DNA from: a virus
Reading direction: 5' to 3' (one strand)
Virus record (IMG/VR): IMGVR_UViG_3300044640_002221
Location: 64,001 to 128,000 of that record
Length of the DNA: 64,000 nt
Part shown: one piece after another, positions 1-60,062 of the stretch
Layout of the letters: each line of letters opens with the position of its first letter
How positions within the stretch are numbered: position 1 is the first letter of the stretch
The notes under the pieces: generated by a model
Seen by the model: the letters and a program-made list of their open reading frames with translations, nothing else
Told to the model about the DNA's origin: nothing
Databases searched by the model: none
Program-made: the position numbers and the translations under genes

Positions 1-154
1 GAGGGGCTACACAACCTTTTGATGAGAGAGTATGTAAATCGGAGTAGGGATTTACATACTCTGTACCATCTTCTAAGTAGAGCTTAGTTTTTGCTAGATA
101 ACTGTTGACCATTGTGGGGTCTTTCGACCATGCTGCGGCTGTGATTAGCTCTTG
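1..154 (-). CDS. polA: DNA polymerase I (family A), 3' exon after the group I intron; runs off the window edge
   Basis: Frame from 154 reads QELITAAAWSKDPTMVNSYLAKTKLYLEDGTEYVNPYSDLHTLSSKGC, matching the PolA segment after motif A (QxEL...D...DxHT). Not in the ORF track. Confidence 0.88.
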
Positions 155-241
155 CTTTTGTGATTACCGTGAGGCTCTTTATCCTCACCTCTTATAGTTT
201 CCTATAAGCTTCGACTATCTCTTCATCTCATGTTGTATTAA

Positions 242-1301
242 TACCCTAGACGGGGCTCGAACCCGCAGTTCCTTTCGTAAGCATAAGGGTTAGGAGAAAA
301 GGTTATAACTACCTGAGCCATTTTCTTATAGCGTTGTCACTTACACCAAACATTTTACCCACAGAAACATAACTTTTTGAAGAAACTAGAGCTAATAGTT
401 CTTCTTTACTAGGTCTGTCTTTGACTTTTCTAGTATGTAATTGATGACAAGAGGGACAGCGAGCACTCTTTCTACTCAATGTGATTTTGCCGCAGTCTTT
501 ACACTTGTTATCTTGAACTTCTTTGTTTCTGAGTTTTTCCTGTTTTAGCTTCAGTAAGTCTGCCTTTTCTTGTCTTTTAATGGTCAGTTGTTTCTGCTTT
601 TCTTCTGTAGCCTTATTACGAAGATGTCTCTCTGCCTGCTTAACTCTTAGTGTGTCTAACTTTACTGTTTCTAGTGTTATTAGCTGCATTGCCAGACTGA
701 ACTTTCTTTCTAGCTTGCTTGTAGAGTCTGCATATAATACTTGACAAACTTTTAAAGCTCGCAGCCCATTAACATTGACCTCGCAGTAGTTACCTCTATT
801 AACAGGTCTACACCTATAAGCTGGGTCTATAGACTTTACATATTCTATAAACCCTTCCACCATATTTATAGACCCACATAGACCAACTGCTCTTTTCTTT
901 TCTCCTACATAAACCCATCCATCTCCATCTATACAGCCCCGCCAAAAGTGACGCTGTAAAGAGGGTTCTATGTAAGGTGGTGATGCTATTAGAGATTTAC
1001 GAGGTACTACCCCAAGCTTTGCCAAGTCTTCTTTCATTCTTTTTGAGAATACTGATAGACAAGCAGAGTTTTTCTTCGTGTATCTAACTTTTGTGTGGGC
1101 TTCTAAATAATCTTTAAACTCTTCCAGTATAAGAAAATCATTTTTATGTACTTCTAAGGAAATATTATTTCCTTTTGTAGATACACACCCATCAGTTATT
1201 AAAAACCCAAGGAAATAGGCTTTACTTTCAGTATCAATGTTTTCAAAGAATGACTCGTTCACAGGTTTAAGCGTGCCTCTTCCGTTTTTGGCTACTAGGG
1301 C
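242..1301 (-). pseudogene. Split tRNA-Leu(UAA)-like sequence enclosing the LAGLIDADG ORF inside intron P8
   Basis: 5' half 1301-1260: GCCCUAG UA GCC AAAAACGGAAGA GGC A CG CUUAAA CCUGUG. 3' half 282-242: ...AACU GCGGG UUCGAGC CCCGU CUAGGGU A. This gives a 7-bp acceptor stem, a D arm with GG, a canonical T arm and A15/U48; the anticodon arm is shortened. Confidence 0.75.
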
Positions 1302-1418
1302 AAGATTAATATAACATAAGATGCCTGGCGTTCGTGGAGCTTTCTGCTGTTCCAGCTTATTAACTCTAGTCTGTACACCTTCCTTCCATTCCTGGAAGGC
1401 TTGGCTCGGTGTTGTCAT
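309..1418 (-). CDS. Intron-encoded double-motif LAGLIDADG homing endonuclease with C-terminal Zn finger and HTH
   Basis: Motifs YFLGFLITDGCV and FWRGCIDGDGWV; CKDC..CPSC; terminal HTH (YVSVGKMFGVSDNAIRKW). The true start is uncertain because ATG 1418 lies in the intron core. Confidence 0.9.
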   Translation of the reverse strand: MTTPSQAFQEWKEGVQTRVNKLEQQKAPRTPGILCYINLALVAKNGRGTLKPVNESFFENIDTESKAYFLGFLITDGCVSTKGNNISLEVHKNDFLILEEFKDYLEAHTKVRYTKKNSACLSVFSKRMKEDLAKLGVVPRKSLIASPPYIEPSLQRHFWRGCIDGDGWVYVGEKKRAVGLCGSINMVEGFIEYVKSIDPAYRCRPVNRGNYCEVNVNGLRALKVCQVLYADSTSKLERKFSLAMQLITLETVKLDTLRVKQAERHLRNKATEEKQKQLTIKRQEKADLLKLKQEKLRNKEVQDNKCKDCGKITLSRKSARCPSCHQLHTRKVKDRPSKEELLALVSSKSYVSVGKMFGVSDNAIRKWLR

Positions 1419-1514
1419 GCTCTAGTAGAGTTTAGAGTTCACCGAGTTAACCAGGTTTACACTACATGATTACTCGTGTAGGAGGCCAATGGTAGATGCA
1501 ACCCTGTCTTTGCC

Positions 1515-1856
1515 TTAAAGACGGTTATGCTTTTCGGTTCTTTGTACTCTTCTTGGTACTTTATTCTCATCGAGAATGTTATATAAGACAGTAGTGCCAA
1601 AACCAAACTCTTTTAGGATGTCGCCAGCTTTTGAACCAGCTTTATATTTTGATATAACCTGCTCAACAGTGGCAGAAGGCAGCTTGACTTTACTAGCGAT
1701 AGTCCTTCTTTCATAAACTTGGTTTTTATCCAATAGAGTATAAAAATTATGACTGTTAAGCTCGTATCTCAGTTTTATTCTGTGTACAGGCTCGCCATCT
1801 TTATATGCTGCTATTATTTCTGCTACTTGTTGTGGGGTTAAATCTTTATAGCTCAT
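1515..1856 (-). CDS. Intron loop-1 ORF, tandem HTH-repeat protein
   Basis: Two similar repeats (EIIAAYKDG..IKLRYEL..FYTLLDKN / QVISKYKAG..ILKEFGF..LYNILDEN) bracketed by an 11-bp stem (1866-1856 with 1501-1491). Confidence 0.75.
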   Translation of the reverse strand: MSYKDLTPQQVAEIIAAYKDGEPVHRIKLRYELNSHNFYTLLDKNQVYERRTIASKVKLPSATVEQVISKYKAGSKAGDILKEFGFGTTVLYNILDENKVPRRVQRTEKHNRL

Positions 1857-1877
1857 TGCACCTACCGGATATTTTCA

Positions 1878-1991
1878 ACCTGCGTAATCACAGCTTATAT
1901 GCACTTCTCCTGGTCTACATTCAAACCCTACTCTGGGATTACCTGGGAAGGTAATTGTTCTTGTTTCAGGTTGCCATAGAGTAATTCCCAA
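1878..1991 (-). CDS. polA: polA middle segment ending at the 5' splice site
   Basis: Frame open 2006-1878: ...TITFPGNPRVGFECRPGEVHISCDYAG, equivalent to PolA 'RxxF...G..l.s.DY'. Possible TTG start at 1991 with AAGGA 8 nt upstream; the start is a hypothesis. Confidence 0.7.
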
Positions 1992-2188
1992 ATTTCTTTT
2001 CCTTTCTTAGTTAGTTGCAGATACTGCCTCTTGATGAGCAGCTGCTTACTTTTTAAAACATTCAAAGCAAGCATCACCTCCTTGGTGGTTAGTGGAACAT
2101 CTGGAAATAGAATACCCTTTTGAGGGTCTTTAAAGCACTGGAGAACTAGCAACTCATGCTGGCTCAACTTTAAGCCCAACGGGAGCAA
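1928..2188 (-). CDS. Small winged-helix-like ORF in the +1 frame across the polA discontinuity
   Basis: LSQHELLVL...LTTKEVMLALNVLKSKQLL..RQYLQLTKKGKEIWELL resembles a wHTH ending in LTxKG. Confidence 0.5.
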   Translation of the reverse strand: MLPLGLKLSQHELLVLQCFKDPQKGILFPDVPLTTKEVMLALNVLKSKQLLIKRQYLQLTKKGKEIWELLYGNLKQEQLPSQVIPE

Positions 2189-3554
2189 ACCAGGCTTTAG
2201 ATAGTGTAAGATTGCAATGCGTTTTATTCCCTATTTGTTGGCTGTTAGGTGCTGAAGAACTGGCTCTACTTGTAGCGGCTCCAAGTTGATCATAGCGAGG
2301 ATGAACGTTACCAGTCACAGGATTAATAAACTTTCTCAAGTCCATACCTTCCTGCTTCAATAACTTCTTAAACTCAAGAATAGCTTTCACTACAGGGCTG
2401 AGAGCTATCAAGTCTGACTGTTCCATGATAGTTAGTTCCTCAAAGAGAGATTCCTCATCATCACTAATAAAGATATCATCTCCACCAGCCTCACCATCGC
2501 CCCCGCTGTCTGTCTTTTTAGAAGCATGAAGTAAGTCTACAATGTCTAGCATTCTTTTGAGAGTTTTACCTTGTACATCAGTTAGCTTATTCATGTTGAT
2601 AGCTTTCTGAAGTACATCTAGTAAGCCTGTTGAGGAGCGAAGAACCTTGAGGGCTTTCTGCGAAGGAACTTCTTTACCAGACCAATCACGTTGGGGAGTG
2701 TCAAGCTCTAGTTCTCTCGAAAGATAAACTCCAGCTTCGTCTAGTGCTTCACAAACCCCTTCTTGATAAAGTCGCATGGTTTCTTCACTGACTGGCATAC
2801 CGCCATATTCCATCTCAGCTACTATGACAGTGAAGTTTAATTCTCGTTTAAGAACTTTCTCCATTCCAAAGCCATAAACACCTGAGCTGTTACCTGTCTG
2901 TAAGATAGGGCTATCTGGTAGTGCGGCTATAATAACTTGCTCCATGATGTCATGTATCTGAAATAGATATTTAACATCTGTAGCTGCGTATAGCACCTTC
3001 TCATACCACCATTCATTATCTAGAGTTCTGGCTGATATTGCAGTTCCCCAGGTAGAAGCACGCAGGTCTTTCTTACCGGTGATGTGAACACTCAAATACT
3101 CTCGGCACAAGTCAGCGTAACTATGTCCATGACCTTTACCTACCTTTGAGCCTGTGGCATTGGATATTAACTTACCCATTACCATGATGTCTCGCACGCG
3201 CTCTGGCATATAGTCCAAGGTTGATTTCATGAACTGCATATCAAACTTGTAGTTAATACCTAGCTGATAGTCTTGTACACTTTCTAAAGTGTCTATCAGT
3301 TCTTGAGGGTTGTAACCAGCAACTTCTAGGTGAAGTAAATCAAAGACGTAGGGGATACCTTTAGGCTTCTGGGCTATTAGCAGAGAGATTCTACCTGTGT
3401 GAGGGTCAAGAGCAGAGCCACCTTTGGTTAACCACTCTGGTCTTACACAGGTTTCTGTATCTACTGCCAGCCGCTTTGCTCCATAAAGGTCTCTACAAGC
3501 TAGAGGATAGTCTTGCAGGTTGGTTATGTAGGCAAAAGGTTTAGTTTGTTTCAC
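2154..3554 (-). CDS. polA: DNA polymerase I N-terminal part (3'-5' exonuclease, thumb, start of palm); no 5'-3' exonuclease
   Basis: ExoI AVDTET, ExoII NYKFD, ExoIII YAATD; C-terminal VHPRYDQLGAATSRASSSAPNSQQI matches PolA 'H.fnQ.gtaTGRLSSs.PNlQni'. Confidence 0.92.
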   Translation of the reverse strand: MKQTKPFAYITNLQDYPLACRDLYGAKRLAVDTETCVRPEWLTKGGSALDPHTGRISLLIAQKPKGIPYVFDLLHLEVAGYNPQELIDTLESVQDYQLGINYKFDMQFMKSTLDYMPERVRDIMVMGKLISNATGSKVGKGHGHSYADLCREYLSVHITGKKDLRASTWGTAISARTLDNEWWYEKVLYAATDVKYLFQIHDIMEQVIIAALPDSPILQTGNSSGVYGFGMEKVLKRELNFTVIVAEMEYGGMPVSEETMRLYQEGVCEALDEAGVYLSRELELDTPQRDWSGKEVPSQKALKVLRSSTGLLDVLQKAINMNKLTDVQGKTLKRMLDIVDLLHASKKTDSGGDGEAGGDDIFISDDEESLFEELTIMEQSDLIALSPVVKAILEFKKLLKQEGMDLRKFINPVTGNVHPRYDQLGAATSRASSSAPNSQQIGNKTHCNLTLSKAWFAPVGLKVEPA

Positions 3555-7063: not shown

Positions 7064-10000
7064 ATGTCTAGCCCAGCCGACTTTGACCCTACAAGAATTA
7101 TTAACAAACATTCAGCTACAGCTAACACTGTTCCTAGTCTGTCTACTCTAGAAATTGATGACCAGTTAGTTGGTTTGTATAAAGGTGAGATAGCTGTAAA
7201 TCATTACTCTAATGGCACTTTACTATCTTCTGTAGGGTTATTCATTAGAGTAGGAGCTACCACAACAGAAGAGGTTTCTGACAAATTAGTTCGCATAGGC
7301 CCTGCTTTTGTTACTAACGACTTAACTACAACTACCGCTCCTACTTTAAGTAATCTTTCTAATCCCAGCCTTAATCTTGCTGGACAACTATGGTTAAGAA
7401 CTACAGACTCAGCCGTTTTTATTCATAACTCTATAGGTTGGCAGAGAGTAACTCCTTTAGTGGCTACTGCCGCGACAGCTGGGTTAGTGAGATTAGCAAC
7501 AGAAGCCGACTTAAATGCTGAAGTTTCTGACAGAGTTCTCACACCAGCACTATTAAAGAGTTGGAGAGATAATAAGAAGCTTATAAGTGAAAAAGAATCA
7601 GCGTTCTCTTTTTATGTGGATTGTTACTCTGGTGATGATTCGGTAGAAAACGATGGTAGAGACCTTTATAGACCTTTCAAAACTATTGAGCGAGCTTTAC
7701 TTGAAGTTGCTAAAGTCAGTTATCTACCAGATGCGGGTACTGGCAGCAGAGACTATTACGCTAACTCTACTGTTTTTGTAGGCATTGGAGATTATGTAGT
7801 TGACAACAGACCAGGTTCGGCTCTAGTATCTGAAATTTTATCTTCGGCTGCTGACTCTACAGAACCAATTCAACCTATTAGTGTTGGTGCTATCACAAGC
7901 TATGATCTTACGACTCAAACTTTAGTATTAAGTGGTGGAGTAACTGAAGAGTTAACTGTTGGGACTCAGTTATTTTCTAGTGGTGGTGGAAAAGCTGTAA
8001 TAGAAGCACAACTAGAAACAGGGTACAAATTAAAATCTGTTAGCGGCTCTTGGCTGCCAACTTTAACTGTCAGAGTCTCACAACATAGAGTTTATAACAG
8101 TGTTACAGGCGGTGTTATAGTCCCAAGAGGGTGTTCTATTGTAGGAGCAGACTTAAGAAAAACCAGAATAAGACCAAAGTATGTTGGTGACTTCACTGCT
8201 TGGCAAGATGATTCTGGTTGTTTTGGCACAGGTAGAACATCAATCTTTAAGTTAACAGGCGGGTCTCACTGTACTGCTTTTACATTTACAGATAACTTAA
8301 ATATTCTCTCAACACACCATCTCTGTACTTGCGTTGAGTTTGCTTCTAGCGATGAGTTATCTAATTCAACTTCTGGTTATTACTCTAAAGTCTTTAAAGG
8401 TCTAGGAGCTACTGTTAGCCCGACTATGTTAGCTACTAACTTGGCGGCTGTACTTGAAGAGAGTAGTATTGTGTCTCCTACAATATCTTCTACAGAGTTA
8501 GATCCTAATGGCTTTACTGCTGTTAACAGTGTTGTGGGTTCCTCTCCTTACGTCTTTAACTGCTCTGTGCTTTCCAGGTTTGGTCTGTGCGGTATGTTGG
8601 TTGACGGAGCAAAGGCAACTGGCTTTAGAAGTATGGTGACAGCACAGTTTACTAATGTCTCCCTGCAAGTTGACTCTAGAGCTTTTGAGAATGATATTGC
8701 TACTCCTGGTGGTAAAAGATATAAAGAACTATGGAGACACTTCTCGTTTAAAGCTTGTAACAACGGTTATATCCAGATTGTTAGTTGCTTTGTAGTGGGC
8801 TCGGCTATTCACTATCAAACAGTAGATGGTGGAGAAATGAGTATCACAAACAGTTGCTCTAACTTTGGTGACTTGTCTCTTGTTTCTAATGGGTATAGCA
8901 CCAATATTCTTCCTCAAGATACTGGCGGTACTATTACAAAACTTATCAGCCCTAAACCTCTTTCTCTAACTCCGGTAGAGATACCAACTCTTCCTTTTGT
9001 AGCAGCTAACTCTACAACTACTAAGCTATATCTTGAAGGAGATTTAGCTGAAGAAAGAATAGCTCCTTTTACCTTTGTAGGTGGCGACACTCTTTATGTA
9101 AATGATGGTGAAGGTACAGAGTATACTGCAAAACTATCGGCTACAGCTCCTTTCTTTGCTCAAGATAGTAACGGCTGGTACTTTATCACTCAAGCAACTT
9201 CTAACGGCATCTATGCTAATAGAGCTTTGATAAACTTATTTCCTATTTCTATCAAAAGGGTGGTTGACGAGAGATCACAAGACGACAGAATCTATTGGTT
9301 AAAGCTGGAAGGATTAACCTCTGACTCTCAGCGTAGACCTTTAGAAAACTTTGTTCTTAGGTTTAACCAGACTTTAATGAGTAAGACTCTCGCAAGAAGT
9401 CTATTTGTAGCAGCAGTTAAAACTACTGATAGTGCCGGAGTTAATCTTGCTACTGGAACTTATTTAATAGCATTACTAAGTGCAGATGGTAATAATGACC
9501 TGACTGAGAATATTTATCCACCAATAGCGGTTAATGCCCCTCTTGAGAACTCTGCTACTAGCTTGACTTACAAGGCTATGCAGACTCTACTCACTGCTTT
9601 AGAGATATCACAAGCGGAGCAATCAACCTTACTGGTGGCATCTAACTCTGAAGCTACTATTCCAGTAACTATCCGTCCTGACTTTGCTAGACCCTCGTTG
9701 ATAAGATGCTCTATGCACACTTGGGAGTGGCAAGGGTACATGAACTACTCTTCTGCTTTACCTAAGTTTCAACAAAAAGTTTTATCCTTTACTGACTCAA
9801 TGAAAAGAATAAAGGTAGAAACAGAGGGAGGTCGTGTTTACTCTACTGGTATAGATCAAGACGGTAATTTTATTGTTGGTAATAAGGTTATTGACTTAAA
9901 GACTGGTAATGAAAAGGCACTTAACGGAGCTAATACAGACTCTCAAGTGTTTAAGAAGCTAACAGTGACTGAAAGGCTGTTAATGTTTCCTAACTCTACT

Positions 10001-10834
10001 TTAGATTTGAGGTCTACAAAGCTAAGTATTGATTCACGGACTAGGTTTACAAGCCCTATTACTACTAACTCTCTTACTTACGCCACAACCGAGCAGCCAG
10101 GGTTTATAGAGATTGCTAATGTTGCTGAAGTTATTGCGGGGACTAATAATAAACTAGCTGTAGTGCCTGCTACTTTAAAAGCAGTTACAGACTTGTTAGA
10201 AACAGGGATAGGAAACATACTAGACTCTTTAGTACCTATATTAGACTCTTTAGTGCCTCTAGGAACAATTATTGAGGCTTCTACTAATACTGCTCCTACT
10301 TGGGGAACATGGATGCCTGCTGATAACAGAGAAATATCTGTCGAAACTTACCCAGAGTATTATGCTGCTTTAGGAAGTCCAACCTTATCCTCTGAACCTT
10401 CATTAGCGGCTCCTTTAGGAAAGTATAGAATACCAGATAGAAGAGATAGAGTTTCTGTGGGTGCTGGAGGAAGTTATAGTTTGGGGTCTACAGGGGGAGC
10501 ACCCACTCATACTTTGACTATTAATGAGATGCCTACTCATAGTCATACTGCTGATCACACACATACTTATAATGATCCCTCTCACACTCATGTTTTAACT
10601 TTAGGAGGAACTCAACTTAGAGGATATGCTGAGGGCAATGGAGCAAAAGGAGATGGAGCAGAATTAACCACTATACCCGGGGGTTCTCTAATGTATGCAC
10701 TTAATTCTTATAGCTATACTGGGATTACTATTAATCCTACTTCTGGGCTTACAACCAGCAGTCAAGGTTTAGGGCAAGCTCACAACAATATGCAACCCTA
10801 CATAGTTCACAATCATTTTGTAAGAGTCAAGTAG
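7064..10834 (+). CDS. Long tail fibre / receptor-binding protein with C-terminal tail-collar domain
   Basis: Fibre repeats ATAGLVRLATEA and TEQPGFIEIANVAE; YVD...GDD...DG....PFKTIERAL and VIVPRGCSIVGADLRKT (cyanophage-type beta-helix); collar ending PLGTII...HNNMQPYIV. Confidence 0.85.
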   Translation: MSSPADFDPTRIINKHSATANTVPSLSTLEIDDQLVGLYKGEIAVNHYSNGTLLSSVGLFIRVGATTTEEVSDKLVRIGPAFVTNDLTTTTAPTLSNLSNPSLNLAGQLWLRTTDSAVFIHNSIGWQRVTPLVATAATAGLVRLATEADLNAEVSDRVLTPALLKSWRDNKKLISEKESAFSFYVDCYSGDDSVENDGRDLYRPFKTIERALLEVAKVSYLPDAGTGSRDYYANSTVFVGIGDYVVDNRPGSALVSEILSSAADSTEPIQPISVGAITSYDLTTQTLVLSGGVTEELTVGTQLFSSGGGKAVIEAQLETGYKLKSVSGSWLPTLTVRVSQHRVYNSVTGGVIVPRGCSIVGADLRKTRIRPKYVGDFTAWQDDSGCFGTGRTSIFKLTGGSHCTAFTFTDNLNILSTHHLCTCVEFASSDELSNSTSGYYSKVFKGLGATVSPTMLATNLAAVLEESSIVSPTISSTELDPNGFTAVNSVVGSSPYVFNCSVLSRFGLCGMLVDGAKATGFRSMVTAQFTNVSLQVDSRAFENDIATPGGKRYKELWRHFSFKACNNGYIQIVSCFVVGSAIHYQTVDGGEMSITNSCSNFGDLSLVSNGYSTNILPQDTGGTITKLISPKPLSLTPVEIPTLPFVAANSTTTKLYLEGDLAEERIAPFTFVGGDTLYVNDGEGTEYTAKLSATAPFFAQDSNGWYFITQATSNGIYANRALINLFPISIKRVVDERSQDDRIYWLKLEGLTSDSQRRPLENFVLRFNQTLMSKTLARSLFVAAVKTTDSAGVNLATGTYLIALLSADGNNDLTENIYPPIAVNAPLENSATSLTYKAMQTLLTALEISQAEQSTLLVASNSEATIPVTIRPDFARPSLIRCSMHTWEWQGYMNYSSALPKFQQKVLSFTDSMKRIKVETEGGRVYSTGIDQDGNFIVGNKVIDLKTGNEKALNGANTDSQVFKKLTVTERLLMFPNSTLDLRSTKLSIDSRTRFTSPITTNSLTYATTEQPGFIEIANVAEVIAGTNNKLAVVPATLKAVTDLLETGIGNILDSLVPILDSLVPLGTIIEASTNTAPTWGTWMPADNREISVETYPEYYAALGSPTLSSEPSLAAPLGKYRIPDRRDRVSVGAGGSYSLGSTGGAPTHTLTINEMPTHSHTADHTHTYNDPSHTHVLTLGGTQLRGYAEGNGAKGDGAELTTIPGGSLMYALNSYSYTGITINPTSGLTTSSQGLGQAHNNMQPYIVHNHFVRVK
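10217..10258 (+). repeat. 21-nt in-frame tandem duplication (ILDSLVP x2)
   Basis: ATACTAGACTCTTTAGTACCT / ATATTAGACTCTTTAGTGCCT. Confidence 0.85.
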
Positions 10835-10835
10835 C

Positions 10836-11852
10836 TTAAAGTATTTCTGGGGCGGAGAGACCTAGTTCTTGAGCTTTAGCTGCTAGTCTTTTCAGCTCCA
10901 GGTTACTAATCTGTCTTACTCTATAGTGAGTAATATTTAAAATACTTCCTATCTCTTTAGCAGTCATAGGAGCTTCACCATCCAAACCAAATCTCCAAGT
11001 CAGGATATTTCTTTCTCTATCGTTACTGTCTTCCATGAGAAGGGTTAAAGTAGCTAGATAGTCTAACTTCTCTAAGCTTGGAAGTATCTGGTCTTCTGCT
11101 TCTATTAACTCTCCTATAGTGCATTTCGAGTCAGCAAACTCTCCTGTAACAATATCTGTGGAGCAAACGCTTTGGCTCCACCTCTGCAAATTAACTATTT
11201 TTTCATAGGGTAAACACATTACTTCGGCTAACTGTGCCACTTTAGGAGTGCAGCCGCTTTGTTCTGTTAATACTTTAGTTATTCTTTTTAGCTTATTAAC
11301 CTGTTCGTGAACCATTACAGGCAGTCTTATAGTTCTACTCTGTTGAGTTATAGACCTAGTTATAGCTTGTCTAATCCAGCAAGAAGCATAGGTAGAAAAC
11401 TTAAAACCCTTGTCTGGGTCGAACTTCTCGGCGGCTCTATTCAACCCTACAGAACCTTCTTGCACTAAGTCTATTAGAGACTCTTCTTGTTTTCTGGCGT
11501 ATCCTTTTGCTAAAACTACTACTAATCTTAAATTAGCTTCTATAAGTTTTTTTCTAGCGTTACTAGCTCTTTTTAATATAGTATTTAACTCTTGTAAGCT
11601 TATTCCTATTGTTTCTGCTTGCTGTAAAGTAGCTATGGGTTTAGCGAGATTTAATTTTAGTTGAGGGTGTTGTTCTGCTAAACCCATAGCCTTTCTTACA
11701 ATCCTGCCTAAAGACTTTTCCTCCTCAGCGGTTAGCAGTTTATACCTTCCTATAGCTCGTAAAAAAGCACCAAGGCAATCTTCTTCTCTGCCGTTTGGTT
11801 CTTCTATTCTTATATCCTGTAATACTGTCGTTTTCTTCTTGTCTGTCTTCAT
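10836..11852 (-). CDS. Sigma70-family sigma factor (cyanobacterial group 1/2-like)
   Basis: FLRAIGRYKLLTAEEE (region 1.2), ANLRLVV..AK.Y, DLVQEG..GL.RA.EKFDPDKGFKFSTYA..WIRQAITR, RTIRLP, region 4 HTH. Confidence 0.93.
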   Translation of the reverse strand: MKTDKKKTTVLQDIRIEEPNGREEDCLGAFLRAIGRYKLLTAEEEKSLGRIVRKAMGLAEQHPQLKLNLAKPIATLQQAETIGISLQELNTILKRASNARKKLIEANLRLVVVLAKGYARKQEESLIDLVQEGSVGLNRAAEKFDPDKGFKFSTYASCWIRQAITRSITQQSRTIRLPVMVHEQVNKLKRITKVLTEQSGCTPKVAQLAEVMCLPYEKIVNLQRWSQSVCSTDIVTGEFADSKCTIGELIEAEDQILPSLEKLDYLATLTLLMEDSNDRERNILTWRFGLDGEAPMTAKEIGSILNITHYRVRQISNLELKRLAAKAQELGLSAPEIL

Positions 11853-11905
11853 ACGCTGTTAGTTTTAGTAGTTAGGCTTATACTAACAGTTTTGTTGCCT
11901 TGTGT

Positions 11906-13258
11906 TCAACCTACCTCTAAGAATTTTGATGCTCCACAATTAGAGGCTATATTCTTTAATGCTTCTCTGATACCAAAATGTTCCTTTGCTGAACCATAAA
12001 CGCAGTGCATTACTGTGTTATTAACTTCTACAATTGGTGTAAGAAATCTGTTTAAACACTCTTCCATGCCGTTTTCTATTTCATCATATCCTTCTACTAA
12101 TTCTGGGGCTTGGTTCTCCTCTACTTCTTTATCTAAAGTCTGTAAGTCCACAATCATCTTTCTAGGGGCGTAGTAAGGCGGCTTATAGACTAACGCAATA
12201 ATAACAGAGGCACACGTGATGTTTATGCCGACAATACTACGACTGCGACCTGTATGACGGCGCAGAACTAATAGGTGTAAAGGAGTCAGCCCGCCGGCTT
12301 CTATAATTGGGCCACAAAACATAGCTGCTTTATGTCCTATTGTTATCAAACCAAAACCACCAGGCTTGATTATATTACCCAACTGACCGCATAGTTTGAT
12401 AAAACCTTCCTCTTCATCTTTTATAAAGCTATATCTCATAGGAGCTTCTACTACTGCTACGTCAACAGACTCATAAGGTACTTTATTCAAAGCTGTTGGT
12501 GCTAAACCTTTATAAACTTTTGACTTCATTCCTCCAGTAGAAAGAGCAGCCTTTTCTTTTTGTATTTCCTCATCTTGTGTCTTTTCTTTTTCTTTTTTTA
12601 TAGATAATAAAGCTTCTTTTGTGCTCTTAAAGCCAGAGTTAGTATCTGTTACTAAAAGATTTGCTACTTCTATTTGTCTTTTAGCACTCAGTTTAGAAAG
12701 GTTCCTTAGTTCCTTTGCGTCCTCTGCTACACTACTTTCTGCTAAAACATCTATGACTTGTGGGTTTACTCCAGCCTCGGCTAGTTTTATCTTTCTGTAT
12801 ACTTTTATTAAGTCAGTTATTTCTTCTCTTGTTGGGGGTTCTTTAGATGCAGCTGCTAGTTTAAGTATTTCTTCTTTTACTTCAGGCTCTACAGTTGTTC
12901 TGGCTGTGTTATACAAAGCACTTAAGCTTAATCTAGATATTCCTTTTGAATGCTCTTCACCATGCTCTAAAACTAAGTTATAGAGGTTTATAAGATTATT
13001 GGCTGTGTCATGAGATATTTCACCTACTAACTCTGTCTCAACCCATCTTTGCCAAAGTTTGCCTTTGTTATTCTTCATGAATATCTCTCTAGCTACTTTA
13101 AGCTTTCCACCAATCTCAACCGCTACTGTCTGGCTTTGTCTTCTCCAAGAAGAACTTATTTCTAAAACTTCAGTGGCAATTGTTTTAAGCTCTTCTGAAG
13201 CTGTTTCTTCTATTTCTAGAAACTCATTAGTTAAAATTAAAGAACCGTTATTTAACAT
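11906..13258 (-). CDS. DUF3102-like domain fused to a degenerate DNA methyltransferase-like domain
   Basis: N-terminal EIGGKLKVAR..GKLWQRWVE..ISHDTANNLINLY; C-terminal VYKG..LNKVPYESVDVAVVEAPM where DPPY/NPPY would be expected. Confidence 0.6.
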   Translation of the reverse strand: MLNNGSLILTNEFLEIEETASEELKTIATEVLEISSSWRRQSQTVAVEIGGKLKVAREIFMKNNKGKLWQRWVETELVGEISHDTANNLINLYNLVLEHGEEHSKGISRLSLSALYNTARTTVEPEVKEEILKLAAASKEPPTREEITDLIKVYRKIKLAEAGVNPQVIDVLAESSVAEDAKELRNLSKLSAKRQIEVANLLVTDTNSGFKSTKEALLSIKKEKEKTQDEEIQKEKAALSTGGMKSKVYKGLAPTALNKVPYESVDVAVVEAPMRYSFIKDEEEGFIKLCGQLGNIIKPGGFGLITIGHKAAMFCGPIIEAGGLTPLHLLVLRRHTGRSRSIVGINITCASVIIALVYKPPYYAPRKMIVDLQTLDKEVEENQAPELVEGYDEIENGMEECLNRFLTPIVEVNNTVMHCVYGSAKEHFGIREALKNIASNCGASKFLEVG

Positions 13259-13377
13259 ACAGCCTTCCTGTTTTATTTTTAGGTCTCTAGATTATAACTT
13301 CTATTTTGTTATTTTGAAACCTAAAAATAAAATTTATTGTAAGGTGTATACAATTACAGCTTAATGACAGGGGGTGT

Positions 13378-13629
13378 TTAAATACAGCTTACTACGTTAG
13401 CTACGCGTGAAAGCAGGTTAAAATTGTACCCAATACTACTATATGAATTTGTTAATACTTTAACATCTTCTGGAGTTAATTTATTTTCTGCTAATTGCGG
13501 TAGAACATAATACTCTAAAAATACCTCAGCTTCTTTCTCTGTTAATGTTAAAACTCCCTCAACTATCCATCTACTAATAACTTGAGTTGGGGGTAGAGAA
13601 GATTTCTGATTATCTAAAGAAACAAGCAT
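13378..13629 (-). CDS. Hypothetical protein
   Basis: ORF track; ATG start. Confidence 0.6.
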   Translation of the reverse strand: MLVSLDNQKSSLPPTQVISRWIVEGVLTLTEKEAEVFLEYYVLPQLAENKLTPEDVKVLTNSYSSIGYNFNLLSRVANVVSCI

Positions 13630-13808
13630 AAGTGCTACTTTTTACTAGATTGCTTGACTATTATAGTTAAAAGTTAAGTTATATGCCTACTTGAAAAGAT
13701 TGATGATAAACGACAAAAGCAAGCATTTACTCTATGGAATGTAAGAGCTATTATGTGTGCAAAAAACCTTTCTTAACTCAACGAACTGTTCGTCGTTTTT
13801 TTGCTAAG

Positions 13809-14507
13809 TTAATTGGGTTGAAAGTTTTTTGCTCCTATACCATGAACGTCAACTACTATATTGCCAAACCTACCATTACACTTACCACAATCTTGACAAG
13901 TTATGGCATAGTTACTACTATCTGCTGGGCAGTAGGTTTCATCCGGCAGTACAGGTTCATGTTTTTGTTTAACTCTAAAGGTCTTCCACCCTCTTGAGTT
14001 TGCTTCTGTTTTTAGTCTTACACTTTCTACTGAAGCTTGTATATGTTGTCTCCATCTAGAGTCACAATCTCTCCATCTGTGAGTGTACCCTGTTTTGATT
14101 CTTGTCACTTTTAGTAATGCCTCCCATATTTCAAAGGGAACTGCAGTAGCTTCTCCATAAGCGGCTATTCTTAAATCTCTACCATTTAACTTGTAAGAAG
14201 TTTTAATTAAAGGATACTTATCTTCCTTATAAGCCTTGTACACCTGTCCTATAGTCATGTGGTTAACATAACAGATTCTTCCTTTACCTTTATCTCCCCT
14301 TAGAGGACAGCTACCACATACTGACTCATCTGCTCCACTCCTAATAGCTTCTGTAGGATGAATATCTTTTGGTAAAATCCAAGTCTGTAACATCCAACCT
14401 GTCTTGCGATTAGCTGAGGGTCTAGTTGTACCTGTTACCAGCAAAATAATAGAAGCTCCATTAATTAATGAAGCTCCCTCCCATATAACATTTCCGTTTG
14501 GTATCAT
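13809..14507 (-). CDS. Cys-rich conserved phage-type protein, possibly Fe-S binding
   Basis: NRKTG.M.QTWI, CGSCP....CY, R..AYGE, TGYTHRW, CPA....TCQDCGKC, VHG. Confidence 0.6.
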   Translation of the reverse strand: MIPNGNVIWEGASLINGASIILLVTGTTRPSANRKTGWMLQTWILPKDIHPTEAIRSGADESVCGSCPLRGDKGKGRICYVNHMTIGQVYKAYKEDKYPLIKTSYKLNGRDLRIAAYGEATAVPFEIWEALLKVTRIKTGYTHRWRDCDSRWRQHIQASVESVRLKTEANSRGWKTFRVKQKHEPVLPDETYCPADSSNYAITCQDCGKCNGRFGNIVVDVHGIGAKNFQPN

Positions 14508-14556
14508 CTGTTCTGGCTTATTTTAATTTCTTTCTTTCGCTCTCTCTCGTCTTTTT

Positions 14557-15105
14557 TTATTCAGACTTGAACAAGTCCTGCTCAGCTTTTCTTCTTAGGA
14601 CTAGCCCCTTTAAAATCCCTCTTCTACCTCTTCTCCATTTTGGCAGCTCGTCCGCCGCCCCGGCATAATCTCCTCTGTTCAGCTTCTTCAGTAAAGAAGA
14701 CCTTTGAAAAGCTCCGTCTCCTGTATTAAAAGTGAAAGATACTAGAGCACTAAACTGGTTATCAGTAAGAGGAACCTTTACATATTTACTAACTACAGCC
14801 TCAAATTCTTTCATATCTTGCTGTAGCAGTAGCTCTGCTTTCTCTACTGTAATAGCTCTACCTTGCCTTGCGGTTTTACCTGTATGACCCCACCCAATAC
14901 TTTTTACACCTGATGGACATAAGTAAGGTCTTAGGTACAAACCTTCAAAGTGTTTAACCAGTTTTAACCCCGCTGGGTTGATACGTCTTTCTTGTTTAAC
15001 TGGTTGTATACTGACTTCTTCTTCTTCTTCTTGCTTAAAGTCTATTAAAGGTGTATGCCACTTGAGAGTAACTGCTAATAGAAGGGATTCAAACATTTCT
15101 GTCAA
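14557..15105 (-). CDS. GH24 phage lysozyme (endolysin)
   Basis: HFEGLYLRPYLCPSGVKSIGWGHT, NQFSALVSFTFNTG, GLVLRRKAEQDLF; catalytic triad variant E-C-S. Confidence 0.92.
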   Translation of the reverse strand: MTEMFESLLLAVTLKWHTPLIDFKQEEEEEVSIQPVKQERRINPAGLKLVKHFEGLYLRPYLCPSGVKSIGWGHTGKTARQGRAITVEKAELLLQQDMKEFEAVVSKYVKVPLTDNQFSALVSFTFNTGDGAFQRSSLLKKLNRGDYAGAADELPKWRRGRRGILKGLVLRRKAEQDLFKSE

Positions 15106-29375: not shown

Positions 29376-30210
29376 TCTCTATCTCCTTGTTATACTTAAT
29401 TGCAAAGTCATTAGCTGCTTCAATGTACTTATCTAAGTCAGAAGCATAAACCCCGGCGCAATGGTAAGAACCAAGCTCTGCAACTTTTAACTCAGAGTTT
29501 CCTTCCATTCTACTGGTAGTGCAGATGTCTATACTCCACATAGCAGAAGGGTACCATTTAGCAGACTTAACTATCTTTTCTACTTCTGCTATTAAACCAG
29601 AAGAATGTTGACGAATAGGCCAAACTTCTCTGTAATCTAGGCTATAGTGGCTGCCAGTGACAAACTTATCACCATACATAAAGCAGCGCCATTCATTGAC
29701 TATCTCTTGCCTTGGAGCCACCAGAACCTTAAAGTCTTTACTCTGTCTGAGATAAATACAAAGCTGTTCAAGGCACCGATAGTCTGTAAGGTTAATTACT
29801 CCGCCGTGGAACTGCTTTAAGCCGCTGTCAGGTCTGATAAACAGTTCTCCTTGAGACTGGAAGTAATCAAGAATCTCAGCTCTGCGCCGCCACAGCTCTG
29901 ATAAAGATAGGATTAGATATTTACTGTTTAAAGCATGATTTCCGAAGTGGGTGAGCCAAGTCGAGCAGTTATAGTTTGACCAGTCATCAATTCCCACCTG
30001 CTGGTCTAAACCCATTGCTCTACAGCTTCTAAAGCTTCCTCTATAGGTTGGAACTTTATCAAACTTTGCTGCTTTGAGTTTAGGAGTAAAGTCATTACGA
30101 AGCATAAAGTTCTTATCAAACTCTAGAACCTCTAAGTTATGTCTTCTTAAAGCAGCAACGAACTGTTCGTCATTGAATACACCATGCTCGTAAATCCAGG
30201 TAGGCTTCAC
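29368..30210 (-). CDS. ATP-grasp domain protein (DUF4343/R2K-like)
   Basis: LFIRPDSGLKQF.GGV, EWRCF, IDIC, KVAELG...AGVY. Confidence 0.8.
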   Translation of the reverse strand: MKPTWIYEHGVFNDEQFVAALRRHNLEVLEFDKNFMLRNDFTPKLKAAKFDKVPTYRGSFRSCRAMGLDQQVGIDDWSNYNCSTWLTHFGNHALNSKYLILSLSELWRRRAEILDYFQSQGELFIRPDSGLKQFHGGVINLTDYRCLEQLCIYLRQSKDFKVLVAPRQEIVNEWRCFMYGDKFVTGSHYSLDYREVWPIRQHSSGLIAEVEKIVKSAKWYPSAMWSIDICTTSRMEGNSELKVAELGSYHCAGVYASDLDKYIEAANDFAIKYNKEIEND

Positions 30211-30680
30211 ACTACTCCTCCCAGTCGGTCTTGAGAAATAATCTGGTCTATAAAGGGTTTGATATTAAACTCTACTGGCTTACCAAATTCTAGCCTTGCA
30301 CCTTCTTTACCACTTTCAACCTTACAAGTTTTAGAAACTCTATCTAGAGATAGTAGAAGACTCTTCTCATAAACAAAGATAACAGGGCGCCATTCAAGAG
30401 TAAATAACTCTAGTGACTCAAAGACGCTCTTTTGAAGGCAGACGGTGATTTTAGATTCATCTCTGGGTAAAATAACCCAGTTTAACAAGTCAAAGTCTTT
30501 TGGAAACCAACTAGGCTGGCAATCAACTGTAAGAAACTCACCTCTTTTTAGTAGAGGCTGAGACTTTCTAAAGAAAGAAGCCAGCCTCTCCACGTCTTTG
30601 TTTAACTCATTAGCTACTTCTTGCTCCATCAACTCAAGAAGCTTTTCTGTAGTTTCTCTAAGTCTATGATGTATGTTCAT
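30207..30680 (-). CDS. Hypothetical protein
   Basis: ORF track; ATGA-type overlaps. Confidence 0.7.
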   Translation of the reverse strand: MNIHHRLRETTEKLLELMEQEVANELNKDVERLASFFRKSQPLLKRGEFLTVDCQPSWFPKDFDLLNWVILPRDESKITVCLQKSVFESLELFTLEWRPVIFVYEKSLLLSLDRVSKTCKVESGKEGARLEFGKPVEFNIKPFIDQIISQDRLGGVV

Positions 30681-30889
30681 TGACCTACTCTCTCAAACCT
30701 CTTAACAAGTTTACCATCAACCTCCACGCTTTCATTAAATTGCTCTGGACTTCTGGTAAACAAAGGGTAGGGGCTGGGGTAAAGCGGAATGTAAACTACT
30801 CGCATTTCATCTTCATCAGCTTCTTTAGCTACGCCTATAACCTGGTAGAGGTTGCCTTTGTAATGCTTATAAGTGCCTGGTTGTATCAT
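30677..30889 (-). CDS. DUF1653-family protein
   Basis: GTYKHYKGNLYQVIGVA...VVY..LY....FTR...F. Confidence 0.85.
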   Translation of the reverse strand: MIQPGTYKHYKGNLYQVIGVAKEADEDEMRVVYIPLYPSPYPLFTRSPEQFNESVEVDGKLVKRFERVGQ

Positions 30890-30926
30890 TAGTTTTTCTT
30901 TTAGTTCCTTACTCTTTTCTTTTTTC

Positions 30927-31475
30927 TTACTTTACTTCACTAAGTTGAGGTTCTTCTGTTACTTTCTTTTTTCTGGGTTTCTTTACTGTAGGAGAGGCTA
31001 CTTTACTTTCAGCTTGCTCTATTTGCTCTGCAGCTTTTTCTAACTGTGTTGCGGCTTTTTCTATTTGCTTTTCTTCTTTTACTACTTTTACTGGAGATAA
31101 CAAAACCCAAGGCGCGGTGAGTTGTTCTTTATTGAGAGTTATAACCCAGAGTTCTTTAGGTTCTGCTTGTATTTCCCATTTGATACCTAACCAGAGTTCT
31201 TGTTGGATAGGATGGCTGCTGGGGCGCAGACCAGAGACTACGGTGAAGGAGTTACCGAGTTTCAATTGGGAGATAGTTTGTTTATCATTCACACTATGTA
31301 CATAAGCCACTCCTGGGCGGAGGGAGAGAACTTTAGTAAAGAAGAACTCAGCGCGGACGAAGCCTTCTTCTGATAGAAGTTTTGTAAGGTTCTGGGCGCA
31401 GGTAGTAGCCCAGGCTGTGAGTAGGGTATGTTTCTGTTGGTCTGGTAAAACAACTGGATGAGCGATGAGTGCCAT
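30927..31475 (-). CDS. Hypothetical protein with charged tail
   Basis: ORF track; K/E-rich C-terminus. Confidence 0.7.
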   Translation of the reverse strand: MALIAHPVVLPDQQKHTLLTAWATTCAQNLTKLLSEEGFVRAEFFFTKVLSLRPGVAYVHSVNDKQTISQLKLGNSFTVVSGLRPSSHPIQQELWLGIKWEIQAEPKELWVITLNKEQLTAPWVLLSPVKVVKEEKQIEKAATQLEKAAEQIEQAESKVASPTVKKPRKKKVTEEPQLSEVK

Positions 31476-31477
31476 AA

Positions 31478-31888
31478 TTAGTGTTGAATAATAGGTTTTT
31501 TAAGTGCTCTGCGAAGTTCTTGCCAAGTAGTTTTAGGAGGGTTTAGTAGAGGCTCGCCTATTGACCTTTCTTGAGGATTGACTGCGATTGCCTTGACTGC
31601 CTGAACACCCTGCTCAACTGCTTGACCAAGTTTCTTCATTACCCAGCTTACTACTGCTTTAACCTTAGCACCAGCTCTCATGTCTTTCTCTATTGCTCCA
31701 GCTACAGCAGTTACAAGTTCTTCTGTGTCTTTTAACGAAGCGTACTTAACTGTTTCTCTAGCTGTAATGACTGGTTTTAGAACAGATTGTGTTGAAGGGT
31801 TGTACTTACTATCAGCTCTATAAAACTTCCTGTATAGAAGTACAAGAGTGTAGGGAGGATTAATTGGTGAATGGTTTGTGATAGTCAT
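31478..31888 (-). CDS. Hypothetical protein
   Basis: ORF track; first gene after a divergent spacer. Confidence 0.7.
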   Translation of the reverse strand: MTITNHSPINPPYTLVLLYRKFYRADSKYNPSTQSVLKPVITARETVKYASLKDTEELVTAVAGAIEKDMRAGAKVKAVVSWVMKKLGQAVEQGVQAVKAIAVNPQERSIGEPLLNPPKTTWQELRRALKKPIIQH

Positions 31889-55012: not shown

Positions 55013-55091
55013 GACTTACTCTCTAAGGAACAAATACCCTGCACTCTTCTTTTTTTCTTTTAAAGAGAAAAGGGGCATCAAGCCCCTCATT

Positions 55092-55418
55092 CTAACCTTC
55101 TATAATTACCTTCTCTCTTGTTAGTTCTACATTCTCGTTAAAGCTATTAACTAGCTCAGTTAATGAGCTAGTTGGGTGTAAAGAGATAGTTCCATCTTTA
55201 TGTCCTACAATACTACCAAGAGTTGGGTGGAAAGCTTCAAACAGTCCCGCATCATAGTCAATATACTCAATCGTCCAGTGAAATCCTTCTGGAGTAGGAA
55301 AACTCCACTGTATCCGCTCCCGTTCTAAAACCACACCGTTTGGGTGCTTTGGAGTCTTTACAAGCTCCCACGCTTCCGCCTTTCTGTTTGTAGTGGTGTC
55401 TATAACTTTAATCTCCAT
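55092..55418 (-). CDS. Hypothetical protein
   Basis: RBS AGGAG and ATG. Confidence 0.7.
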   Translation of the reverse strand: MEIKVIDTTTNRKAEAWELVKTPKHPNGVVLERERIQWSFPTPEGFHWTIEYIDYDAGLFEAFHPTLGSIVGHKDGTISLHPTSSLTELVNSFNENVELTREKVIIEG

Positions 55419-55521
55419 GACTGTCTCCTAGAAATAATGAAAGAACATATACCCTTCACTCTTCTTTTTTTCTTTAACATAGTGCTTGCACACACTTCTG
55501 TTAATAAGCTGCTACTATAGA

Positions 55522-55551
55522 AATAGGTGTCTAATATATTAGACACCTATT
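55522..55551. repeat. Perfect 30-bp palindrome in a divergent promoter region
   Basis: AATAGGTGTCTAATA|TATTAGACACCTATT. Confidence 0.9.
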
Positions 55552-55575
55552 CAAGTTCACATCATTTAATTAATT

Positions 55576-56247
55576 ATGACAGACCAGAGCGCTTACGTCA
55601 TCGAAGAGTTAGAATTTATAGATGAGCAAATGCCGTCTGTATACCTACTATCTTATCACACTGCCAGTATGAATGAACTCTCTATAGCTAAAGAAGCTTA
55701 TGACACCTCTCAGCAATACCGCTTTAAGAGTCTCACTCACTATAAGAACTCTGGCGAGTTTCTGATAAAGATAAGAGAAGCTCTGCGGGGTGCAACAAGA
55801 GAAAAGCCTATTGTCTCTGATATAGGAACATTTAACTCCTTTGAGCACTATATGCAGACCTTCTTTGGTAAGGAGACTACAACAGGCTTAAAAAGAGCTC
55901 AAGCTAGAAACTACATGAGGCTGGCAGAAAACTGGGATGTCGTAGAAGACTTAAAGCTAAACGAAAGCGAAGCTTGTTACAGGTTAGTAGCAACCTTAAA
56001 GATTATCTCTTGGGGTCTCAAGAAGAGAGAGGCTGGCTATAACCTTAAAGAGTTAGACCACCACCTCTACTGGGATGAGAGAGACGAACTAGCCGCTCAA
56101 CAGGAACGGACTGGTGAACTATCAAAGCCTCAACTAAAAGCTCTTGTTAAAGAACTAAATAAGAAGGTAGAAGACTTAACACAAGAGCTATTGGTCTACA
56201 AGCGACGGTTTAGTGTTGACATTCTAGAAGAGAGCTTCGCCCGGTAA
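55576..56247 (+). CDS. DUF3102-like protein
   Basis: GEFLIKIRE..FEHYMQ..F....RAQARNYMRLAENW. Confidence 0.65.
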   Translation: MTDQSAYVIEELEFIDEQMPSVYLLSYHTASMNELSIAKEAYDTSQQYRFKSLTHYKNSGEFLIKIREALRGATREKPIVSDIGTFNSFEHYMQTFFGKETTTGLKRAQARNYMRLAENWDVVEDLKLNESEACYRLVATLKIISWGLKKREAGYNLKELDHHLYWDERDELAAQQERTGELSKPQLKALVKELNKKVEDLTQELLVYKRRFSVDILEESFAR

Positions 56248-56270
56248 ACTACTCTCTACTTTTTTCAATT

Positions 56271-59291: not shown

Positions 59292-60062
59292 TTAGACGTT
59301 AGCTGCAAGTACAGATTGGTCTACCTTTGGCGGAACTTCTGGAGGCGTACTTCCTGCTCTAACGCGAGTTTTTGGAGCCTCTGAAGGTGAAACTGCTTTA
59401 GGAGCAGGTGGAGCTTCTGGAATATCTCTTGTGGTTACACTAATAGGAGCCCCAGTTTCAACCTTCTTAGGTTGGGGCTTGCCGTTACGGAAGTAATCAT
59501 TTAATTCCACTTTTCTACCCCTAATACCATCCCCATGCCACTCCAAGTTTCTATAAGCCCAACCACTAAAGCTGAGCTGACCCTCCTTATTAATTTTTGG
59601 TAATAGCTGCAATCCAGCATCACCATCTTGGGGCTCAAACCAAAGATTTGGGCAGTCTTTATAGTTTGGTTTAGAACCAGACTTAAGAATCTCGCCGGCT
59701 TCTCCAGTCCATTCTAGAAGTACATTTAGAGCAGCAACTACCTCTGGTTCTAAATCTTCTTCATGCAGAACTACATAACCGCCGATTTCCCATAATGAAT
59801 TATCGCCAGCAGCTTTAGCCGCAGCGATATCTTTTGGTAAAGGTACAAGCTGCCAACCGTCTTCTGAAGAGCTAGTGCGACCTTGAATCTTTAACTGCAG
59901 GCTGAACCTGCCTGGAGTGTCTTGATAAACACCCCAAACGCGGGGTTTAACCAACTCTAACTCTTCGCTCCACATTGTGATGCGCTGACCAGCTTGTAGC
60001 TGCTCACAGAATAGAGCGGGTAGATTTAGGTCTTCAGCTAACTTTAATAAATCTTGAGACAT
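59292..60062 (-). CDS. Hypothetical protein with Pro-rich tail
   Basis: RBS AAAGGA and ATG. Confidence 0.75.
   Translation of the reverse strand: MSQDLLKLAEDLNLPALFCEQLQAGQRITMWSEELELVKPRVWGVYQDTPGRFSLQLKIQGRTSSSEDGWQLVPLPKDIAAAKAAGDNSLWEIGGYVVLHEEDLEPEVVAALNVLLEWTGEAGEILKSGSKPNYKDCPNLWFEPQDGDAGLQLLPKINKEGQLSFSGWAYRNLEWHGDGIRGRKVELNDYFRNGKPQPKKVETGAPISVTTRDIPEAPPAPKAVSPSEAPKTRVRAGSTPPEVPPKVDQSVLAANV

Follow-up and report, generated by a model that had tools for sequence, protein, structure and literature searches.

The stretch of DNA analysed here (the window) comprises 64,000 nucleotides (nt), bases 64001-128000 of the 136,923-base virus record IMGVR_UViG_3300044640_002221, and all features under study lie on its minus strand. 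In the second polA gene of this phage, the first group I intron carries a putative LAGLIDADG homing-endonuclease gene inside its P8 helix, and this gene is bracketed by two halves that together resemble a transfer RNA (tRNA). On balance, this tRNA-like shell is best read as a decayed class-II-type tRNA that the endonuclease gene has divided in two and that would now act as a clamp on P8. The relic is possibly Leu(UAA)-like.

The outermost layer of the element is P8 itself, in which C1323-U1305 faces A242-G224 with 18 of 19 positions paired, one of them as G.U, and with a single mismatch (A1312.C235). No inverted repeat of the region is longer than this helix (I1 in the inverted-repeat search), which encloses about 1.07 kilobases (kb). 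The base of the stem, AUCUUAUG / CAUGAGAU, is shared with the P8 of a related phage, here stretched to 19 positions. Across a short bulge follows the acceptor-like helix (1301-1295 with 249-243), in which all seven of the pairs expected from the tRNA model RF00005 are formed, including G1.U72. The next base, A242, has a double role, as it stands where A73 of a tRNA would be and also forms the last pair of P8. The sequence-only reading of this DNA had claimed that the two halves are complementary across 1 kb, and these 7 base pairs (bp) do indeed form a long-range pairing across 1045 nt.

Within the 5' half, U1294 and A1293 are followed by a D arm composed of GCC (1292-1290), 12 nt with GG, and GGC (1277-1275), and then by A1274; a 3-bp stem with a 12-nt loop containing GG is acceptable for a class II tRNA. 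The anticodon-arm stub shares C1275 with the D stem, with which it competes. It can be drawn as CACG/UGUG (1275-1272 / 1263-1260) around the 8-nt loop CUUAAACC, or with the 3 bp CGC/GUG. RF00005 calls for G18 G19 in the D arm and for an anticodon stem of 5 bp that carries a loop of 7 nt; this combination was not found, as the stub has only 3-4 bp and an 8-nt loop. In the 3' half, the T arm has five pairs, G53-C61, and U54 U55 C56 R57 A58 Y60, which makes it fully canonical, and it adjoins the 3' acceptor strand without a spacer. A local hairpin shortly before the T arm (Table 1) is possibly the remnant of a long variable arm. All of the elements listed in the sequence-only reading (P8, acceptor, U8-A9, D arm, anticodon stub and T arm) were found at their minus-strand coordinates, and the nesting that it had proposed, a LAGLIDADG gene between tRNA-like halves, in P8, in a group I intron, in polA, is borne out as anatomy.

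A separate observation in this region is a 14-nt alternative pairing (I12 in the same search), in which 12 of the 14 positions of 1415-1428 match 1292-1305. One strand belongs to the P5 region and includes AUG 1418, while the other consists of the bulge and the acceptor-like 5' strand. This pairing would compete with the ribozyme fold and the acceptor helix, burying AUG 1418.

The resemblance of the shell to a tRNA exceeds chance. Genome-wide counts, which cover about 137 kb and both strands, revealed four occurrences of the strict T-arm pattern (5 pairs, G53-C61, TTCRANY), three in tRNAs called by ARAGORN and the fourth in the shell, whereas 0.3 per genome are expected from Markov shuffles. 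In addition, GGTTCGANNCC is unique to this site in the genome. ARAGORN at default settings makes no tRNA call at the shell in its genomic context, but it calls a split tRNA at 1302-241 when introns are allowed and the threshold is set to 95%, whereas contiguous local models need a threshold of 70%. The 95% setting with introns is noisy, giving two further weak split calls in the 64-kb window and nine in 358 kb of unrelated loci. Such weak calls, including window 55063-56257 and 59657-59799 and G000 29912-31822 (G000 denotes coordinates of the whole virus record), are regarded as background noise.

Joining the two halves was a check proposed along with the sequence-only reading. Artificial constructs representing 560 junction choices were submitted to ARAGORN at the default threshold, and 27 of them were called, one as tRNA-Leu(UAA). 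In the controls, the acceptor and the 3' part were kept fixed while the 46-nt 5' inner part was replaced by random genomic segments or by shuffles. Random genomic 46-mers gave any call in 35 of 800 cases and at least 27 calls in five, and the shuffled inner parts gave any call in 7 of 200 cases and never as many as 27. With a randomised T region, none of 300 constructs was called. The joined halves therefore beat the controls and score better than shuffled sequence. Furthermore, 56 viral contigs carry real tRNAs with an identical acceptor, and one group among them (L017 and its relatives) also has the D arm GCC..AA..GGAA.GAGGC.

Despite this likeness, the shell is a degenerate tRNA and no longer a tRNA. 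The best contiguous alignment to the Rfam covariance model, at 318-242, scores 17.7 bits, compared with a gathering score of 29. The 3' half alone scores 11.4 bits and the 5' half alone has no match to the Rfam tRNA model, whereas the genuine 5' half of the phage's tRNA-Arg, tested alike, reaches 29.2 bits. Nearest-neighbour folding predicts P8 and the acceptor helix with probabilities of about 0.95-1.0, compared with 0.008 for the T stem. The 5' inner part is predicted to pair with the T region instead, which yields a rod (-28.2 kcal/mol) that is better by 7.3 kcal/mol than the cloverleaf (-20.9 kcal/mol). The extra complementarity of the rod is marginal when compared with shuffles (p ~0.065). 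In the same folding, the phage's intact class II tRNA forms a cloverleaf.

The host intron can be delimited from both its ribozyme core and its exons. Its borders are GGU|UGA at 1878/1877 and the terminal G155, with matching junctions in the related phage, and the predicted exon join, SCDYAG-QELITAAAW, restores polA motif A in frame upon translation, with DYAG|QELI split by the intron. The Rfam model RF00028 aligns to a 5' part (1509-1276) with 43.7 bits and to a 3' part, extending to 191, with 28.4 bits. Each part is below the 50-bit cut-off because the insert splits the model; the group I core from P3 to P9, with J8/7 and the G-binding P7, is recognised. Based on these sequence features, the intron at 155-1877 is predicted to be self-splicing.

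The open reading frame (ORF) in the insert is an intact putative LAGLIDADG homing-endonuclease gene, as judged from its sequence. It scores 31.3 bits against LAGLIDADG_3 (cut-off 22.5), and it contains two LAGLIDADG motifs in one chain, YFLGFLITDGCV and HFWRGCIDGDGWV, with D76, G77 and D164-G167 invariant in an alignment of 15 sequences. Homologous endonucleases are 30-45% identical, and the part conserved among them starts at ...NESFF, exactly at GUG 1262. The 52 codons upstream of this GUG have no counterpart in the homologues and are encoded by the P5/P6 to P8 region and the tRNA-like 5' part. AUG 1418 and GUG 1262 are the sole ordinary in-frame start codons of the ORF. A search for an internal promoter or terminator found nothing beyond shuffled expectation. 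A 'variable-arm' helix closing the ORF was also considered; it was rejected because the best duplex at the ORF ends is no better than in shuffled or genomic controls (p = 0.3-0.6). As a side observation, the zinc-ribbon and helix-turn-helix (HTH) tail of the protein (309-500, about 60 amino acids) is 49-68% identical to the tails of GIY-YIG (PF01541) or HNH (PF01844) proteins, and this DNA-binding module appears from such similarity to be common to different nuclease families.

The sole relative found is the phage of record IMGVR_UViG_3300046777_002658 (L004), which is 73% identical in polA-N. Queries made of polA-N and of exon 2 retrieved a single contig apiece, in both cases L004, and a tblastn search of GenBank phages with the host gene yielded distant mycobacteriophage polymerases only. 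At the equivalent site, L004 has an intron with the junctions GATTACGCGGGT|TAA... and ...ACAAG|CAAGAGCTAATCACAGC and with an uninterrupted core of 81.8 bits in RF00028. As this intron matches at identical junctions and has an HTH ORF and an uninterrupted core, the placement of the element inside P8 of an intron inside polA is correct. The P8 of L004 is GUCUUG-UAACC-CAAGAU, with 6 bp, and it contains neither an endonuclease gene nor a shell. Homologous introns had been suggested as a place to look for the same shell, and the sole homologue found is without it. Since both components are absent from L004, the endonuclease gene and the shell make up one insertion-linked unit and are not a trait of the intron family. 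The polA of L004 also has long, intein-looking in-frame inserts that are absent from the polA of the window, at 9983-12391 (...SRS|C...HN|SSS) and at 13251-15095 (in motif B, RKSAK|C...|SLNFG).

Other copies of the unit were sought in several ways. No close relatives that combine the endonuclease with the shell emerged when IMG/VR and JGI metagenomes were scanned with peptide patterns. No exact 23-mer match and no match to T-loop-to-J8/7 patterns was found in IMG/VR, and no exact 21-mer match was found in 185,579 species genomes. In GenBank phages, the blastn matches were confined to the LAGLIDADG motif and the P7-P9 core. The idea of a cassette with terminal repeats that is also present elsewhere in the genome was dropped, as no second copy was found. 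The tRNAs of L004 and of the phage itself are unrelated to the shell.

Neighbouring introns of the same gene show what this polA gene accommodates. An intact 82-nt class II tRNA(CAU) is found at G000:C1:56274-56355, 8 kb before the window start, and has a homologue at L004 18563-18644. In both phages it appears to sit in the last polA intron, judging from group I-type J8/7-P9 sequence downstream. An AU-rich helix (GUGC..UAUAA / UUAUAGCAC) carries it at its tip, with linkers of 4 and 2 nt and with small ORFs upstream, and the copy in L004 scores 50.8 bits in Rfam. The presence of this intact tRNA gives tRNA cargo at a hairpin tip a local precedent. In intron 2, a perfect 19-bp P8 (G000:C1:62887-62905 with 59351-59369) closes about 3.5 kb of cargo. 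It has no tRNA-like features, and a GNAT-like ORF starts directly at the helix end. Long helices that close the cargo are therefore general in this polA gene, with or without tRNA features.

In the reading of the shell as a decayed and split tRNA, the break point would follow the anticodon arm and precede the variable/T region. The 5' part would have contributed the acceptor strand, the D arm and the anticodon-arm stub, and the 3' part the variable-arm-like hairpin, the T arm, the acceptor strand and A73. The acceptor pairing would stack on the 19-bp P8 across the 3-nt bulge to form a 26-bp clamp, which would keep the two ends of the insert close to each other and thereby let P8 and the ribozyme core fold, and extra pairing between the halves may extend this clamp into a rod. 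The introns of this polA gene seem to gather cargo at their hairpin tips. A cargo tRNA at the tip of P8 may later have been split by the endonuclease gene, or the endonuclease gene may have come with tRNA flanks. Of the earlier proposal that a homing endonuclease gene invaded a phage tRNA-Leu(UAA) gene, the splitting of a tRNA is supported by the performance of the joined halves against controls, the class II D arm, the single Leu(UAA) call and the intact tRNA in another intron. As to the order of events, the evidence is compatible both with a tRNA that was first in P8 and with a joint arrival.

Several findings weigh against this reading of a split and decayed tRNA. The unit is known from one genome only, which makes a test of conservation or covariation impossible. 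An uninterrupted version of this tRNA was looked for in the 197-kb record of L004 and, with exact 21-23-mers, in IMG/VR and the 185,579 species genomes, and none turned up. At 80 loci of homologous endonucleases in IMG/VR, no tRNA or split-tRNA call spans the endonuclease gene, and arrival with tRNA flanks is therefore without precedent in the endonuclease family. The support for the 5' half amounts to p ~0.006-0.04 in a single program and is unseen by Rfam. Additionally, the occurrence of a perfect T arm next to decayed D and anticodon arms could indicate that the T arm is under selection for a function that the clamp does not capture.

The sequence-only reading had also raised the idea that the shell is working tRNA-like punctuation, which is unlikely. 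The host's RNase P would cleave in front of G1301 and its RNase Z behind A242, in the precursor or in the excised intron, freeing an endonuclease messenger RNA (mRNA) with its ends paired in a tRNA 'top half', while P8 would keep the two pieces of the ribozyme together. The acceptor, the T arm, the U at position -1 and A73 are all canonical, as such cleavage would call for, and the GG of the D-like loop could contact the T loop to build the elbow. As the GUG at which the conserved endonuclease domain starts comes right after the tRNA-like 5' part, that part could be a 5' untranslated region (UTR). The intact tRNA of the last polA intron must be processed from intron RNA, and plant mitochondrial t-elements are a precedent for mRNA end formation by tRNA-like folds (PMC1920247). 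However, the improbable T stem and the energy deficit of the cloverleaf argue against a substrate of this kind, as does a 5' half that is not tRNA-like to the Rfam model. The site of cleavage would fall in the 3-nt bulge, flanked on both sides by stacked helices. Pairing between leader and trailer impairs RNase P, and a leader-trailer helix of 19 bp is expected to hinder cleavage. In addition, the ORF is open from AUG 1418 across the supposed cleavage site, and both the homologous intron and the 80 homologous endonuclease genes do without a shell. The processing reading has no support in this analysis, and some of the evidence is against it.

Equally, it is quite unlikely that the shell has no tRNA ancestry at all. 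In that case the 7 bp would be an extended P8, the T-arm-like hairpin would be a convergent T-loop motif or a part of the rod that stabilises the insert, and the likeness to D and anticodon arms would be due to chance. The minimum-energy fold, a rod with the 5' inner part paired to the T region, agrees with this, and so do the complementarity of the rod, marginally above that of shuffles, the lack of an Rfam match for the 5' half, and the comparable weak split calls made by relaxed ARAGORN elsewhere. Chance or convergence would nevertheless have to account for a T arm that fits every conserved tRNA position at so low an expected frequency, and yet lies at zero spacing from the acceptor strand. 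Moreover, U8-A9, GCC..GG..GGC-A26 and A73 are all in register, and the real 5' part outdoes 99% of random parts by the number of junction choices called.

A contiguous relic, in which 318-242 is a pseudo-tRNA within the endonuclease 3' end and UTR, the gene lies upstream, and the distant GCCCUAG is just a better partner, is most unlikely: Rfam aligns these bases end to end with 6 of 7 acceptor pairs and the local 5' end GCUCAGGUAGUU is similar to the distant GCCCUAGUAGCC, but the score stays under the gathering score, the D loop has 15 nt without GG, the anticodon loop has 10 nt, three acceptor pairs are G.U, ARAGORN accepts it only at the lower of the two thresholds, and the endonuclease gene uses the UAG of the local copy as its stop codon.

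The wider locus contains two polA genes. The first (2154-3554, minus strand) encodes a 3'-5' exonuclease and the start of DNA_pol_A, as identified by Pfam, and the second polA gene, which is in pieces, comes after it on the minus strand. Beyond the window start, this second gene reaches motif B, and its continuation has a Pfam DNA_pol_A match. Intron 1 starts with a UGA stop codon at 1877-1875. A stop codon immediately after the 5' splice site is observed in both phages, GGU|UGA (1875-1877) here and GGU|UAA in L004 (12663-12665), and ribosomes arriving from the exon would therefore halt at the intron border. The first polA gene is overlapped at its end by a further ORF of 86 amino acids (1928-2188), which is in a different frame and has a 93-amino-acid counterpart in L004 (12330-12611).

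Table 1. Features of the second polA gene, its intron 1 and the insert (window coordinates; aa, amino acids).
Feature	Position	Strand	Basis and remarks
Group I intron 1 of second polA gene, 1723 nt	155..1877	-	U before 5' splice site, terminal G155; Rfam RF00028 and exon junctions
polA exon	1878..1991	-	...HISCDYAG, first half of motif A, up to 5' splice site (translation); exon end identical in L004
Next polA exon	2..154	-	QELITAAAWSKDPTMVNSYL...DLHT, extends past window start (translation)
HTH ORF, 113 aa, tandem HTH	1515..1856	-	P1 region of intron; ORF list, weak Pfam HTH_7 match; 31%-identical ORF at equivalent place in L004
Ribozyme 5' core, P2 to P3 3' strand	1324..1509	-	cmscan alignment; about 80% identical to L004
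P8 5' strand	1305..1323	-	Inverted repeat I1; aligns to RF00028 P8
Bulge CUU, 3 nt, between P8 and acceptor-like helix	1302..1304	-	Sequence; U1302 would be position -1
Acceptor-like 5' strand GCCCUAG	1295..1301	-	Pairs with 243-249; pair probabilities 0.95-0.998 (two-piece fold)
U8-A9 and class-II-type D arm	1275..1294	-	Sequence; ARAGORN drawing; randomisation test; no Rfam tRNA match alone
Anticodon-arm stub CACG / CUUAAACC / UGUG	1260..1275	-	3' strand carries in-frame GUG 1262-1260; ARAGORN anticodon taa or taaa
Putative LAGLIDADG homing endonuclease ORF, 369 aa from AUG 1418	309..1418	-	Pfam LAGLIDADG_3 31.3 bits; C-terminal zinc ribbon and HTH
Local hairpin CCUU(10 nt)AAGG, 4 nt before T arm	271..288	-	Minimum-energy folds; ARAGORN variable arm
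T arm GCGGG-UUCGAGC-CCCGU	250..266	-	Rfam tRNA 11.4 bits (3' half alone), 17.7 bits (318-242); pattern census
Acceptor-like 3' strand CUAGGGU	243..249	-	Sequence, fold; then A242 as discriminator
P8 3' strand	224..242	-	cmscan alignment; inverted repeat I1
J8/7, P7 3' strand, P9 and P9-type hairpins, terminal G155	155..223	-	cmscan; conserved with L004 13231-13305

Phage group I introns with an endonuclease in a peripheral loop are well represented by T4 td/I-TevI, SPO1 DNA polymerase/I-HmuI and cyanophage Pf-WMP3 DNA polymerase/I-PfoP3I (PMC3428280). They share with the present intron the location in an essential replication gene, a looped-out ORF and a helix paired over a long range. Here, in contrast, the ORF is flanked by tRNA-like halves, and the intron also has a second, HTH-only ORF. 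A review of bacterial group I introns makes no mention of 'tRNA-like' or 'RNase P' (PMC3984707). The intact tRNAs carried by the last polA introns of this phage and of L004 are similar in that a tRNA is located at a hairpin tip in the same gene, with the acceptor stem following an AU-rich helix and a few unpaired bases. However, that tRNA is whole and folds as a cloverleaf, whereas the shell is degenerate and interrupted by 1 kb.

Other systems resemble parts of this arrangement. The t-elements are tRNA-like folds beside mRNAs, and mRNA ends arise there through cleavage by RNase P and RNase Z (PMC1920247). Plant mitochondrial t-elements, the tRNA punctuation of animal mitochondria and the MALAT1 mascRNA all have tRNA-like folds adjoining mRNAs, as seen here. 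Those folds are contiguous and their RNA ends have been mapped, whereas the halves described here lie 1 kb apart around an ORF in a ribozyme helix. In the twin-ribozyme introns of Didymium and Naegleria, the lariat-capping ribozyme GIR1 matures the endonuclease mRNA, and its cleavage has been demonstrated. In these introns, too, a second structured RNA is nested in a group I intron beside an endonuclease gene, but GIR1 is itself a ribozyme, while the nested RNA here is tRNA-like and would depend on host enzymes. In cyanobacteria and phages, tRNA-Leu(UAA) genes that contain a group I intron likewise combine a tRNA-Leu-like sequence, a group I intron and an endonuclease gene, but with the nesting inverted. 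In those genes the intron interrupts the anticodon loop, whereas here the tRNA-like element lies in P8 and its loop CUUAAACC is uninterrupted. In a limited collection of papers, no description was found of an endonuclease gene between tRNA halves in an intron helix. Phage group I introns that carry ORFs and introns that carry tRNAs are both known kinds, to which the endonuclease gene bracketed by tRNA halves, seen in one genome, would add a new form.

The element currently stands as an unusual anatomical variant in a single genome and not as a demonstrated mechanism. If RNase P and RNase Z were to cut the shell, this intron would hold the first endonuclease mRNA in any group I intron to be punctuated by a tRNA. 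Such a shell would uncouple splicing from endonuclease expression in a new way and would mirror, in a phage and within a ribozyme, the tRNA punctuation of mitochondria. If the shell is a split and decayed tRNA, the locus would record a layered build-up of phage introns, in which the hairpin tip of a ribozyme takes in a tRNA and the tRNA takes in an endonuclease gene, with the leftover tRNA pairing re-used to keep the ribozyme foldable.

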